Shown in pieces: positions 54,020 through 59,620 of a stretch of DNA of 64,000 bases. Below the pieces are notes generated by a model, which was not told the origin of the DNA, ran no database searches, and saw only the letters and a program-made list of their open reading frames with translations. The position numbers and the translations under genes were made by a program. The stretch comes from Chloroflexi bacterium HGW-Chloroflexi-3 (GTDB lineage Bacteria; Chloroflexota; Anaerolineae; Anaerolineales; Anaerolineaceae). The DNA lies in the NCBI GenBank assembly GCA_002842045.1, contig PHBX01000010.1:6267-70266 (forward strand). The letters are read 5' to 3'. The stretch's first letter is position 1. Every line of letters begins with the position of its first letter.

Positions 54020-57000
54020 TTGGCAGACAAAAAATATATCGATCGACCACCCCGCATAGAACCTGAGCTACCTTCTGGAACTCGTGATATTCCCAGCCCA
54101 CCAGATATTGAGGCCAATCCTGGTGCTTTAATGGCACAGGCTTTCTTACCCATGATCATGATTTTTGGATATATTCTGGTTTCATTGTTTGGCAAAGGCA
54201 CCAGTATGATGATGATGATCCCCATGGCACTGTCGGTTGTTGCATCGGTTGCGTTGGGATTTTACACCAACCGCCAGGAAAAAGCCCGTCGGGAACATCT
54301 CAAAGAAACCTACCAGCGCCGTATCAGCGAGTTACGTCGCCAGATGGAAAGTGAACAGGAACAACAAAAAATCTATTATTATTACAATTATCCCAATCCG
54401 GATGTTGCGCTTGCCATTGCAGACGACATCACCAAAGATGAACAACTCAAGAGAGAAGACATTCGCTCTGGAACCAGGTTGTGGGAAAGAAGACCAACCG
54501 ATCATGATTTCATGAACCTGCGCTTGGGGATCAGCACCCGTCAATCGACTGTGATTTATAAAATGCCAGAGAATGAGCAGGTTGAGAACCCACTGACGCG
54601 TGAAGCCACCCGCCTGGCAGAAACCTCCCGGCTCCTGTTTGATGTTCCTGTAACGATCCCATTTTATTATCAGATCGACGAAAGGGAGCAGAAAAAGGTA
54701 GCCGCCAAGACCGATCAGGATTCATCGGATGAGAAAAAGGGAGGTGCAAAAGATGTCACCATTCGAAACTCCATTGGCATCAGTGGGGATTCGGATGAAA
54801 TCCTACACTCCTACTTGCGCACCATGCTGGTTGATTACGCCACATTCCACTCTCCGCAGGACACCATGCTGTACGTGGCCGGTACCAGCGAAATGCGTAA
54901 ACATTGGCGCTGGGCGTACTCCTTACCGCATTGTAAAGAAGCCGACAAAAGCGAAACGCTGTGTTTTGAAAGCGAAGAGAAACCCGGCGAAAATGAAGTC
55001 GACCGTATGCGCTTATTCTGGAAAAATTTACGCACCATCCTCGAACGCAGACGCATGCGCCTGCAGGATAAAGAAAGTGGTGTGGATGTCAAACTACCTT
55101 TCCTGCTGGTCGTTGTGGATGTACAGACACTGGCTCCTGAATGGTCGATCCTGAAAGACTTGGAAGGCGAGGCCACGATTTCCACCATCCTTCTGGACGG
55201 TAAAGAATTAGGGGCAGGGATCATCTTTGTGGTACCGGATCGTAAAAAAGTCCCCAGCCGCTGTGAAGCCATCATAGAGGTGGCAACAGATTCAGTTGAT
55301 GCAGATAGTGTTGTCTTTCGCTATGCTGAGACAGGTTTCAACACCGTGCGATACGTAGGCAAGACCAAAGTAGTCAGCGCACAGGATAAGGCGCGCGAAT
55401 TTTCCAAAGCGCTGGAGCCTGTCGACATTCGCCGTGGTTATGGGTCCAGTCTGGCATCCACCGTTACATTACTGGAAATGTTGAACGTTTCCACCATCGA
55501 TCAATTACAGGAATTAGCAGCCGAAAACTGGAAACGCAGTATGACACCCAACCAGTCTGATTGGTTATACACCGCTGTTGGATTACTCTCCGGTAATGAA
55601 CCCAGGACATTGACTTTCTCAGCCAAAGCAGATGGTGTGCATGGGTTAATTGCCGGCTCCACCGGGTCAGGTAAATCAGAATTATTGATGACCATGATCA
55701 TCGGAATGGCGTTGAATTTTAATCCGGATGTGCTGAACTTTGTCTTAATCGACTACAAAGGTGGTTCAGCCTTTGAGCCTTTCAAAAAATTACCCCATAA
55801 AGTGGATATCGTCACCAATCTGGATCAATCCGCCACTGCGCGTGTTTTTGCATCCATTATTGCAGAGCTGGATCGTCGTCAAAAATTAAACACCTATACC
55901 AACTCCAAGGATATTGTGCATTATCGCAAGAAGGGATTGAACCTCGAACCGGGACGCCCTCCTTATCCGCATCTTTTCATCATCATTGACGAATTCGCTG
56001 AAATGATCTCGGGTAATGCCGAATATAAAGCCCAGCTGGAAAGTATCACTCGCCTGGGTCGTGCGCTCGGTGTCACCTTGATTCTGGCAGCCCAAAGACC
56101 AGTCGGTGTGACCGATCAGATGCGCGCTAATATCAAATTCAGGATCTGTCTACGTGTGGAAACACCGGATGACTCGCGTGAATTGTTAAGACGTGCCGAT
56201 GCTGCCTTCCTGCCACCTGGTATTCCAGGACGTGGCTATCTGCAGGTTGGTAATGAAAATATTGAATTGATCCAGACCGCTTATACCGGCGGTGATTACA
56301 AAGGCCCACAAGAAGAGAATGTCACCCCGAATGTGATCTGGGTGGATCGTGGCAAGAAATCGGCAGCCCAAAAAGCGGTGGAACCCCCCAAACTGTACGA
56401 TGTTATCGTGGACATGCTCGCCAATCTCGCAACCACAGAATCCCGTCCACAATGGCGGCCGTGGCCGGAGTTTCTACCCTCACAAACCGGGAAAAATATC
56501 CTCAGCCTGGAGACACCCGTCGATACCGCCTACATGACAGATGAAGATATTGAGATGTTGAAGCAGACCGATGCTGTGGCGATAATAGGTATGTCGTTAA
56601 ATGAAAAAGCCACTACCTTCTGGAACGATGATTTTAAATGGGATGGATTGGTCTGGGGTAAAAATGCTATACGTCCATTAATTGGTTTGGTGGATAATCC
56701 CTATCTTGCCAGCCAAAAGCCATTGATGATAAACTTCCCGAATGGTCATGCGACAGTATTTGGCGCATCTGGTCGTGGAAAAACCACATTTATTCGCACC
56801 ATCATTACATCCCTGGTGTTAACCCATTCTCCGGATGACCTGCATATATATATCTTAGATTTTGGTGGGCGAGCATTGAACGTCTTCCTGGATTTACCCC
56901 ATGTTGGGGCGATCATCACCTCAGAAGAAGAAGAACGCGTCATGCGCGTTTTGAGAAAAATCAACGATATTATTGAATATCGCCAGGTGCTCTTCAGTGA

Positions 57001-58603: not shown

Positions 58604-59620
58604 ATGGACGATTATATTGATGTCAAAATAAATGTTTTTGAACATACCGGGCAACGTGCTCGGGTGCGGCGATCGATCACCGTAAAAACCTTGATTGATG
58701 AGATCCTGAAGGAATTTGATGATATTGATGCAGATTCCCCGGAAAAATACAGCATTCAATTGAAAGGAGTGGATAGACCACTGGAAGCTAACCACACGTT
58801 GGCACAACTGGATATTCAACCCCAGGATGAAATTACAGTAGGCTATTTGCACCAAACCATCCGGAAAATGCTGGATCCCAAAGACCATGCTACCCTGCGC
58901 GAAGAAACTTCCAATATCACTTTTGATATCCAATGGACACCTGCCATCATCGGCCGGCCCAGCACAGAAGTCAACCACAACATCATGCTGGCTGTCAACA
59001 TGCAAATTCTGGCAATTGGTATGACCATCTCACGCAAGCATGCACAGATTGTATTTTCAGAAGGTTCTTTCTTTATTGAGCCAGCTGCAGCCAATAATCC
59101 GACTTACTTGAATGGGAAATTGTTAGCGGTTAACACCATGAACAAACTCAAAAGTGGTGATCGTCTGGCATTTGGACAGCATAAAGTCAGTTTCGTCTTC
59201 ACTACCAAATCACAACCCGTTTCGTATGGCATGGATCCCTCTGAGCCAATCAGTAAACCGGTAGCTGTTCCAGCAGAGAATTTTCACACCCGAGTCGCAC
59301 CATCAAAAACCGGGATGGCAACACTGGTGATCGAGAAATCATTGAACCTGTCCAATATAGGGCAACGAATTCCACTCCAGAATTTACCTCTGGTAGTTGG
59401 GCGTGTCATTCCACTATTCTCAAGTGAAGGCGATATCTCCAGGCAACACGCAGAGATCAATTTTGACCCTGTATCAAATATGTATACCATAAAGGATCTG
59501 AATAGCACCAATGGTGTCACGCTCAATGGGCAGAGAATTGAGGCGCAAAAGGTTTATGAATTACATCCTGGTACAAAAATTGGTCTTGGAAAAGTAATGG
59601 TTGTAGAGTTCCAAACATAA
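58604..59620 (+). CDS. ubiquitin-like (YukD/EsaB-like) domain fused to two FHA domains
   Basis: 338 aa, starting 3 nt after essC. The N-terminal ~80 aa have a beta-grasp-like pattern (IDVKINVF..VKTLIDEILKEF..YSIQLKG..TLAQLDIQPQDEITV). FHA1: IIGRPS..ISRKHAQI..YLNG. FHA2: VVGRV..ISRQHAEI..STNGVTLNG. Confidence 0.65.
   Translation: MDDYIDVKINVFEHTGQRARVRRSITVKTLIDEILKEFDDIDADSPEKYSIQLKGVDRPLEANHTLAQLDIQPQDEITVGYLHQTIRKMLDPKDHATLREETSNITFDIQWTPAIIGRPSTEVNHNIMLAVNMQILAIGMTISRKHAQIVFSEGSFFIEPAAANNPTYLNGKLLAVNTMNKLKSGDRLAFGQHKVSFVFTTKSQPVSYGMDPSEPISKPVAVPAENFHTRVAPSKTGMATLVIEKSLNLSNIGQRIPLQNLPLVVGRVIPLFSSEGDISRQHAEINFDPVSNMYTIKDLNSTNGVTLNGQRIEAQKVYELHPGTKIGLGKVMVVEFQT

Follow-up and report, generated by a model that had tools for sequence, protein, structure and literature searches.

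A predicted YukD-like ubiquitin-fold protein with two FHA domains encoded beside an FHA-less EssC/EccC-type ATPase in a Chloroflexota type VII-like secretion locus

The locus, its motor ATPase and the adjoining gene

The DNA analyzed here, hereafter the window, is a stretch of 64,000 nucleotides (nt) from contig PHBX01000010.1 (positions 6,267 to 70,266, forward strand; GenBank assembly GCA_002842045.1) of Chloroflexi bacterium HGW-Chloroflexi-3, a metagenome-assembled genome of the Anaerolineaceae, and all coordinates below are positions within it. It carries a putative type VII secretion system (T7SS) locus in which the gene for an EssC/EccC-type ATPase of 1526 amino acids (aa) with a TTG start (54020..58600, +) is directly followed by a gene with an ATG start (58604..59620, +) for a 338-aa protein that is predicted to consist of a YukD-like ubiquitin-like (Ubl) domain and two FHA domains and is referred to as Ubl-FHA-FHA. 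The TAA stop codon of the ATPase gene ends at 58600 and is followed by 'ggt' and the ATG at 58604, which leaves the 3-nt gap described in the initial annotation of the window, and a GAGGA-like ribosome-binding site for the second gene lies within the 3' end of the first. Homologues of Ubl-FHA-FHA are found in at least 325 protein clusters; its open reading frame (ORF) is therefore not a chance one.

Firmicute EssC, the ATPase of T7SSb (model TIGR03928), carries two N-terminal FHA domains before its transmembrane (TM) helices, whereas no FHA domain was found by the Pfam scan of the window ATPase, in which three stretches matched FtsK_SpoIIIE (8.5e-72). The ATPase begins with a short tail that contains an RPPR..LPSG..IPSPP motif, and 37 residues precede the first of two hydrophobic segments (~38-95), which are read as TM helices; after these come a stalk/DUF-like region and three FtsK/SpoIIIE P-loop domains, and the protein ends in an acidic tail. 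The EssC model matches the ATPase only from model position 208 onward, a position that we take from the known EssC layout to be past the FHA region, and position 3 of the EccCa model TIGR03924 aligns with ATPase residue 26. The scores are 733.3 bits for TIGR03928 (cut-off 778.4), 458.7 bits for TIGR03924 (cut-off 509.15) and 347.8 bits for the EccCb model TIGR03925, just above its cut-off of 346.55. In-frame stops are found directly 5' of the TTG start (LMQ-stop-stop-SGRYK-L-ADKKYIDRPPR, where L is the start codon), which makes a longer N-terminus impossible. Pfam, the TIGR alignments and the upstream stops thus agree with the earlier description of an ATPase that is without FHA domains and starts close to TM-like segments. 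The N-terminal motif is common to 26 homologues, and the N-terminus is EccC-like as judged from its sequence: it has an RPPR..P.GE..PPP motif followed by TM-like segments. The published ATPases of T7SSa, c, g and h are likewise FHA-less (PMC11217815). The ATPase ORF also shares its frame with the pseudokinase ORF upstream, and at 53990-54022 no more than two adjacent stops and five sense codons lie between that ORF and the TTG. A candidate docking site for phosphothreonine (pThr) recognition in the ATPase tail (T21-R-D-I) was rejected, since orthologues have V, I or E in place of T21.

The N-terminal domain of Ubl-FHA-FHA (residues 1-82, 58604..58849, +) is read as a YukD-like ubiquitin fold from a borderline PF08817 match, from hhalign and from an AlphaFold2 model. 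Its profile retrieves 73 proteins among 1.84 billion representative proteins, and in a family scan of 55 sequences (the window protein and 54 of the 73) FHA is found in 53 and YukD in 26 (E<=0.01, best 8e-8). When the Ubl columns of the family are aligned by hhalign to Ubl domains that match PF08817 (1e-10 to 1e-15), the probability is 94% (E 9e-8) with diverse alignments and 11% with low-diversity ones. The full-length AlphaFold2 model, built on 32 homologues, places strands at 4-11 and 14-22, a helix at 27-37 and strands at 49-53 and 76-81 with a block-mean pLDDT (predicted local distance difference test score) of 71-88, and this strand-strand-helix-strand-strand order at residues 4-81 is read as a beta-grasp; Foldseek matches for the model include linear ubiquitin chains. 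No other part of the protein is as well conserved as the Ubl domain, whose mean column identity is 82% vs 59% for the whole protein in separate alignments.

In the same model, the rest of the protein comprises FHA1 (residues 96-201, 58889..59206, +), a Pro/Ser/Gln-rich linker predicted as disordered (residues 204-236, 59213..59311, +) and FHA2 (residues 240-337, 59321..59614, +). Pfam matches FHA in two stretches (E=2.5e-27), with that in FHA2 best at residues 275-329, and the two domains are further supported by alignment (FHA1), PDB matches (FHA2) and a tree (both). The linker has a pLDDT below 50, falls in gapped, variable alignment columns (201-300) and is longer in many aligned homologues. 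The signatures G117 R118 .. S143 R144 .. H146 .. N165 of FHA1 and G266 R267 .. S279 R280 .. H282 .. S301 T302 N303 G304 of FHA2 are invariant or nearly so among the 32 homologues, and the invariant positions include R118, S143, H146 and N165 of FHA1 and R267, S279, H282, T302 and N303 of FHA2. The FHA2 motif GR..SRQH..STNG is fully canonical, while in that of FHA1, GR..SRKH..NNP..NG, N-N-P replaces the usual S/T-N-G. Both domains resemble canonical pThr binders rather than the FHA domains of EssC/YukB. The beta-grasp N-terminus and the two FHA domains of the initial annotation are accordingly recovered by Pfam, hhalign and the structural model. FHA1 also contains a conserved insert, PSTEVNHNI(M/L)LAVN.Q, between GR and SR (58955-59020, residues 118-139); this loop adjoins the phosphopeptide pocket, has a pLDDT below 50, is kept in homologues with a single FHA domain and could be a partner-specific contact.

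Upstream, the locus opens with a gene for a VWA-TM-FHA protein (48016..50349, +; Pfam VWA_2 8.5e-15, FHA 1.2e-14), which is followed by a gene for a candidate substrate (50368..51375, +) with a WXG100-like N-terminal domain (Pfam WXG100 1.2e-4, under the cut-off) and a long Gly/Ser-rich tail with TDFGAGQFGG repeats. Four tandem WXG100-type genes of ~100 aa each (51525..52832, +), which are syntenic in relatives, lie at 51525-51827 (+; Pfam WXG100 1.3e-10), 51859-52155 (+; 2.2e-9), 52172-52504 (+; 2.2e-3) and 52533-52832 (+; 1.2e-4). Between them and the ATPase gene is a gene for a 355-aa pseudokinase (52934..54001, +) that Pfam matches to Pkinase (3.8e-14) over model positions 66-212 only, and a convergent katG (59731-61929, -) closes the locus downstream. 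The gene order VWA-TM-FHA, five WXG100, pseudokinase, ATPase and Ubl-FHA-FHA is kept in at least 12 other metagenome-assembled genomes (MAGs), and the identities across 12 syntenic MAGs are 69-96% for the ATPase, 67-97% for the kinase-fold protein and 52-96% for Ubl-FHA-FHA. The closest public relatives are Anaerolineaceae/Chloroflexi MAGs.

The FHA domain of the VWA protein was found by Pfam at residues 702-768, which agrees with the third FHA domain that had been noted on the first gene of the locus. On reading, the VWA protein further shows a signal/TM segment at its N-terminus, a hydrophobic, TM-like stretch near 540-565 and, ahead of the FHA domain, a linker rich in Pro. In an alignment of the pseudokinase to CaMKII, the catalytic loop reads HLCLNPD vs HRDLKPEN of active kinases, with the HRD Asp replaced by Cys, the Lys by Asn and the Asn by Val, and no Gly-rich loop is seen on reading its sequence; the kinase homologue of the locus is thus predicted to be catalytically dead. 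Its four N-terminal Cys (C5, C8, C19 and C24) may form a zinc ribbon, and a C-terminal hydrophobic segment (~333-352) is read as a TM tail anchor. The dead-loop motif, the four Cys and the hydrophobic segment are invariant in 12/12 sequences.

Distribution in Anaerolineae and origin of the two FHA domains

The initial annotation called for a survey of FHA-less EssC relatives for such an adjoining gene. Among 21 EssC-type loci from different families of the class Anaerolineae, no EssC homologue carries an FHA domain (0/21), and all 21 ATPases start with an EccC-like (F/I)(D/N)RPPR..LP.GE.x.PPPP followed by TM-like hydrophobic segments. A nearby gene for a protein with a Ubl domain and a single FHA domain is found in 12 of the 21 loci, mostly directly downstream of EssC; these proteins have 197-238 aa and an N-terminal domain of ~100 aa, which is YukD-like by Pfam or a custom Hidden Markov Model in most of the 12 and divergent in the rest. 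The pseudokinase adjoins EssC in eight loci, six of which also have the Ubl-FHA gene, and seven of these eight encode giant ATPases of 2800-3000 aa. An FHA-less motor accompanied by a Ubl-FHA gene is thus common in Anaerolineae, and the double-FHA form of the window is a sub-variant. The two outcomes named in the initial annotation as refuting it, an N-terminus without a beta-grasp and FHA-less EssC relatives that never have such a gene, were accordingly not observed.

The giant EssC homologues come from seven genomes (L062-L068, e.g., L062 4455-13349 and L064 5912-14923) and are 39-41% identical to the window ATPase, whose ATPase region matches each of them two or three times; they therefore appear to carry extra ATPase modules. 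The same pseudokinase is encoded beside each of the seven, and a Ubl-FHA gene lies beside five.

Beyond the survey, a single-FHA Ubl-FHA protein was used as the query of a word-based search for homologues, in which only close Anaerolineae relatives ranked ahead of unrelated FHA proteins. A phylum-level scan with a narrow Ubl profile found matches in 4 of 401 genomes, two of them in other classes, with a profile that is too specific for a census. The spread of the locus is patchy: the Ubl family occurs in none of ~10 further genomes that were sampled from the GTDB family of the window, and MAGs elsewhere labelled Anaerolineaceae or Anaerolineales do carry it, which suggests loss or horizontal transfer. 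A metagenomic protein of 340 aa (P0200) has WXG100, YukD and FHA Pfam domains, which points to one more fusion or else to gene calls that were merged on a short contig.

Another set of YukD matches in the class does not belong to T7SS. These ORFs of 286-353 aa, paired with ~100-aa YukD genes, are Ubl-E2 fusions near E1, JAB and RING genes. In the locus L020 (G038:C7, 8761-13994), and also in L021 and L024, a YukD-like Ubl-E2 (UQ_con) fusion and a second Ubl of ~100 aa are accompanied by a fusion of E1 (ThiF) with a GntR helix-turn-helix, an FHA-JAB deubiquitinase-like protein, a prokaryotic RING protein and a vWA protein. Such a locus is a complete ubiquitin-conjugation-like cassette that is unrelated to T7SS and is the source of many PF08817 matches in the class.

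The origin of the two FHA domains was examined with a maximum likelihood tree of 46 FHA domains from the surveyed loci. FHA1 groups with the single FHA domain of the Ubl-FHA proteins (support 99/96), while FHA2 is nested among the C-terminal FHA domains of the same lineage's VWA-TM-FHA proteins (98/97). The tree suggests that FHA1 is the ancestral FHA domain of the Ubl-FHA family, orthologous to the single one in other Anaerolineae, and that FHA2 was copied from the locus's own VWA protein, namely from its C-terminal FHA domain. Since VWA-FHA proteins are also present in loci with a single-FHA adaptor only (L066 and L069), the copy was likely appended from the VWA protein to an older Ubl-FHA gene. 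Stepwise assembly of Ubl-FHA-FHA, with the second FHA domain gained by duplication within the locus, is thus the history supported by the tree.

A quite different history had been put forward in the initial annotation, in which a firmicute-type EssC underwent fission and its released FHA pair was fused to a stand-alone EsaB/YukD gene. A Ubl domain and two FHA domains beside an FHA-less EssC do correspond to EsaB plus the EssC N-terminus, and the same modules touch physically in T7SSb (PMC12637312). The different closest relatives of FHA1 and FHA2, the wider spread of the single-FHA form and the survey, in which every EssC is FHA-less and has the EccC-type N-terminal motif, speak against that history. 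Profile and fold searches of PDB return canonical pThr binders, namely ArnA, DgcB, GarA/OdhI, EmbR, FhaA and RNF8 (for FHA2, RNF8, CT664, ArnA, DgcB and GarA), and the FHA domains of EssC/YukB are not among the 50 matches listed in each search. FHA1 and FHA2 moreover keep the pThr pocket, which the FHA domains of T7SSb EssC lack (PMC11217815). Together, the separate relatives, the PDB results and the difference in the pocket argue against a detached EssC pair, and we regard the fission as very unlikely. For the region of the linker and FHA2, the best PDB sequence match is ArnA of Sulfolobus (5a8i / 8s05). ArnA, itself an FHA protein, functions together with the vWA protein ArnB, and the pairing of FHA and vWA in the present locus, where the paralogue of FHA2 sits on a vWA protein, may be an old partnership.

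A proposed adaptor and its alternatives

In the core unit of the Bacillus subtilis system, resolved by cryo-electron microscopy in 2025, the FHA and DUF domains of YukB enclose YukD between them 'like a ball in a hand', the YukC pseudokinase dimer binds the tip of YukB FHA2, and stable recruitment of YukC needs YukD (PMC12637312). The locus of the window is predicted to hold the module types that touch in this core unit, differently distributed over the pseudokinase, the ATPase, which is FHA-less and aligns across the EccCa model with its stalk/DUF region, and the soluble Ubl-FHA(-FHA) protein. Based on these contacts and the presence of the same modules, we propose that Ubl-FHA-FHA is probably, on balance, a soluble assembly adaptor that acts in trans, is equivalent to YukD plus the FHA domains of YukB and bridges the ATPase and the pseudokinase. 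As YukD does in Bacillus, the YukD-like Ubl domain would dock on the ATPase at its cytoplasmic stalk/DUF region. FHA1, rigidly linked to the Ubl domain, would supply in trans the FHA surface that firmicute EssC has in cis and would probably contact the tail-anchored pseudokinase, whose gene lies just upstream of the ATPase gene. FHA2 on its flexible Pro-rich tether probably binds the same, possibly pThr-containing, ligand as the cytoplasmic FHA domain of the VWA protein, by which the VWA-TM-FHA membrane protein would be coupled to the motor. Functional equivalence to EsaB/YukD and the EssC FHA pair is thus plausible by analogy.

Several results weigh against this proposal. The 338-aa protein scores below the Pfam cut-off for YukD in hmmscan (PF08817, E=2.1e-5, 25.6 bits vs 27 bits; 28.2 bits in a six-frame search of the genome), a Ubl-only profile finds no meaningful match among PDB sequences, where designed repeats and one restriction enzyme came up, all at E>0.1, and the Ubl domain is evidently divergent within the YukD-like fold. 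The arrangement of the domains is undefined in the full-length AlphaFold2 model (predicted template modelling score 0.38), and a Ubl-only model (residues 1-98, 10-sequence alignment) is unusable at a pLDDT of 48. No Ubl-FHA gene was found in the fetched neighbourhood of 9 of the 21 EssC loci, tblastn for divergent copies included, and two of the eight pseudokinase loci are without one, with one of these contigs ending 1.2 kb past EssC. The pseudokinase matches Pkinase and PK_Tyr_Ser-Thr in Pfam and not PF10140 (EssB), which leaves its contact with an FHA domain an analogy. RNA evidence was sought for the sequence, and the matches came from DNA metagenomes only (groundwater, coal and hydrocarbon). 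The sub-threshold YukD score and the empty Ubl-only search would also fit a generic FHA regulator that stands beside the ATPase by chance and whose N-terminal domain is an unrelated small domain. The 3-nt gap and strict synteny across 12 MAGs, a Ubl family that is almost always fused to FHA and lies beside EssC in every locus examined, the hhalign alignment to YukD-type Ubl domains and the beta-grasp order of strands and helix in the model make such a coincidence extremely improbable.

Fha1/TagH is the FHA protein of type VI secretion and belongs to a threonine phosphorylation pathway. Ubl-FHA-FHA might similarly be mainly a phospho-signalling switch, with remote Hanks kinases that target either a T7SS component or the adaptor itself for phosphorylation, and with FHA-pThr recognition as the gate to assembly or firing. 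The invariant pThr-binding residues in both FHA domains make phospho-Thr regulation, as anticipated in the initial annotation, plausible; the best structural and sequence neighbours (DgcB, GarA/OdhI, EmbR, FhaA and ArnA) are proven pThr binders, weak matches to the type VI TagH model TIGR03354 (4.9e-13) exist and the genome encodes nine canonical Hanks kinases. One of them, a full-length kinase in a 576-aa ORF (~21778-22539, +; Pkinase 194.9 bits), lies ~26 kb upstream of the locus and is a possible trans-acting source of pThr. Kinases are also paired with pThr-competent FHA domains in T7SSd, e and j (PMC11217815). The sole kinase homologue in the locus is, on the other hand, predicted to be dead, so that any phospho-control must come from kinases encoded elsewhere. 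No PPM phosphatase was matched in the Pfam scans of the main locus ORFs, T21, the only candidate Thr checked in the ATPase tail, is not conserved, and the FHA-pseudokinase contact of T7SSb is phosphorylation-independent (PMC11217815). A role mainly in signalling is therefore possible but somewhat unlikely, and it is compatible with the adaptor model. A further scheme, in which remote Hanks kinases phosphorylate a core component, FHA1/FHA2 then recruit the Ubl domain to the ATPase and license assembly of the hexamer or core unit, and FHA2 and its paralogue in the VWA-TM-FHA protein compete for or co-occupy the phospho-site, is speculative and in our view unlikely. If true, such a detachable switch would link extracellular vWA sensing directly to motor activation, and the locus would be a naturally split T7SS whose assembly is controlled by a soluble subunit.

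In the adaptor reading, an EccC-like motor without FHA domains can have its FHA module provided in trans. T7SS has recruited FHA domains more than once, here stepwise, with one copied from a vWA membrane protein of the same operon. As a natural Rosetta-stone link, the fusion of Ubl and FHA connects the T7SS ubiquitin fold with FHA domains and gives the YukD-FHA contact of the 2025 B. subtilis structure independent support from evolution. For reconstitution, the soluble adaptor together with the minimal, tail-anchored pseudokinase and the FHA-less motor could offer a simpler T7SS core, which could also show whether pThr recognition gates assembly. The Ubl-FHA-FHA arrangement is real, conserved and consistent with the recent structure, while the mechanism proposed for this uncultured organism is drawn by analogy.

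Comparison with known systems

T7SS diversity has been catalogued in Bacillota and Actinomycetota only, as T7SSa to T7SSj (PMC11217815), and within the literature searched the T7SS of Chloroflexota is mentioned just in passing (PMC3482391). A description of a Ubl-FHA fusion was not found in that literature; some members of the family are labelled FHA protein/ubiquitin-like YukD in the automatic annotation of the Joint Genome Institute (JGI).

EsaB/YukD (PF08817) is likewise a beta-grasp Ubl protein, and its gene lies beside WXG100 genes and those for an EssC-type ATPase and a membrane pseudokinase. In Firmicutes it is a small stand-alone protein of ~80 aa, whereas here the Ubl domain and two FHA domains are covalently joined as one soluble protein of 338 aa. 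The FHA pair of T7SSb EssC/YukB is without a pThr pocket (PMC11217815), whereas the FHA domains here keep the pocket and have separate origins. The pseudokinase of the window occupies the position at which Firmicutes encode EssB/YukC, which is likewise a dead kinase. EssB/YukC has an extracellular domain after its TM helix, while the pseudokinase ends right after its C-terminal hydrophobic segment, a layout that resembles TshM of T7SSh, a kinase-like protein with a C-terminal TM helix only.

The closest published arrangement is T7SSc of Bacillota (TscA-G), which shares with the Chloroflexota locus an FHA-less ATPase, WXG100 proteins, a YukD-like protein, a membrane kinase-fold protein and a vWA protein (Garrett, Higginson & Palmer 2024, PMC11217815). 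Its ATPase TscC groups with EccC in the published tree (PMC11217815), and the N-terminus of the window ATPase is EccC-like. The two systems differ in several respects. TscB is a small stand-alone Ubl protein, and the Ubl domain here is fused to FHA. The kinase active site of TscD is intact, and an extracytoplasmic domain is present in TscD, whereas the kinase here is tail-anchored and predicted to be dead. The vWA protein TscE is cytoplasmic, whereas the vWA domain here lies between signal/TM and TM-like segments and is fused to FHA. T7SSc also has a PPM phosphatase (TscF) and the EspG-like TscG, whereas the locus ORFs have a Pfam match neither to these two nor to a further known T7SS component.

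Separate cytoplasmic FHA accessory proteins are known from T7SSe/f/j as TseJ/TsfJ (PMC11217815), in which a non-FHA N-terminal domain precedes FHA, as in Ubl-FHA-FHA. That domain is DUF6382 in TseJ/TsfJ, whereas here it is a YukD-like Ubl domain with no DUF6382 match at E<0.1. T7SSe/f/j keep a separate Ubl protein (TseB/TsfB), and most of them have FHA on the ATPase. Outside T7SS, Fha1/TagH is comparable as an FHA protein in a secretion cluster and as a plausible phospho-dependent assembly trigger, but Ubl-FHA-FHA scores 49.7 bits against TIGR03354 vs the cut-off of 120 bits, and the locus is without a cognate pair of active kinase and phosphatase.

A YukD-like Ubl domain fused to another core module is also found in EccD of T7SSa, where the partner is an 11/12-TM domain rather than FHA (PMC1779556). 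PF08817 is matched only by the Ubl-FHA-FHA gene in the assembly searched (4.09 Mb, 97% complete), which indicates that EccD is not encoded in it. The T7SS Ubl domain has thus been known in two contexts, stand-alone in Firmicutes and fused to the EccD membrane domain in Actinobacteria (PMC1779556), and the Ubl-FHA fusion is a third.

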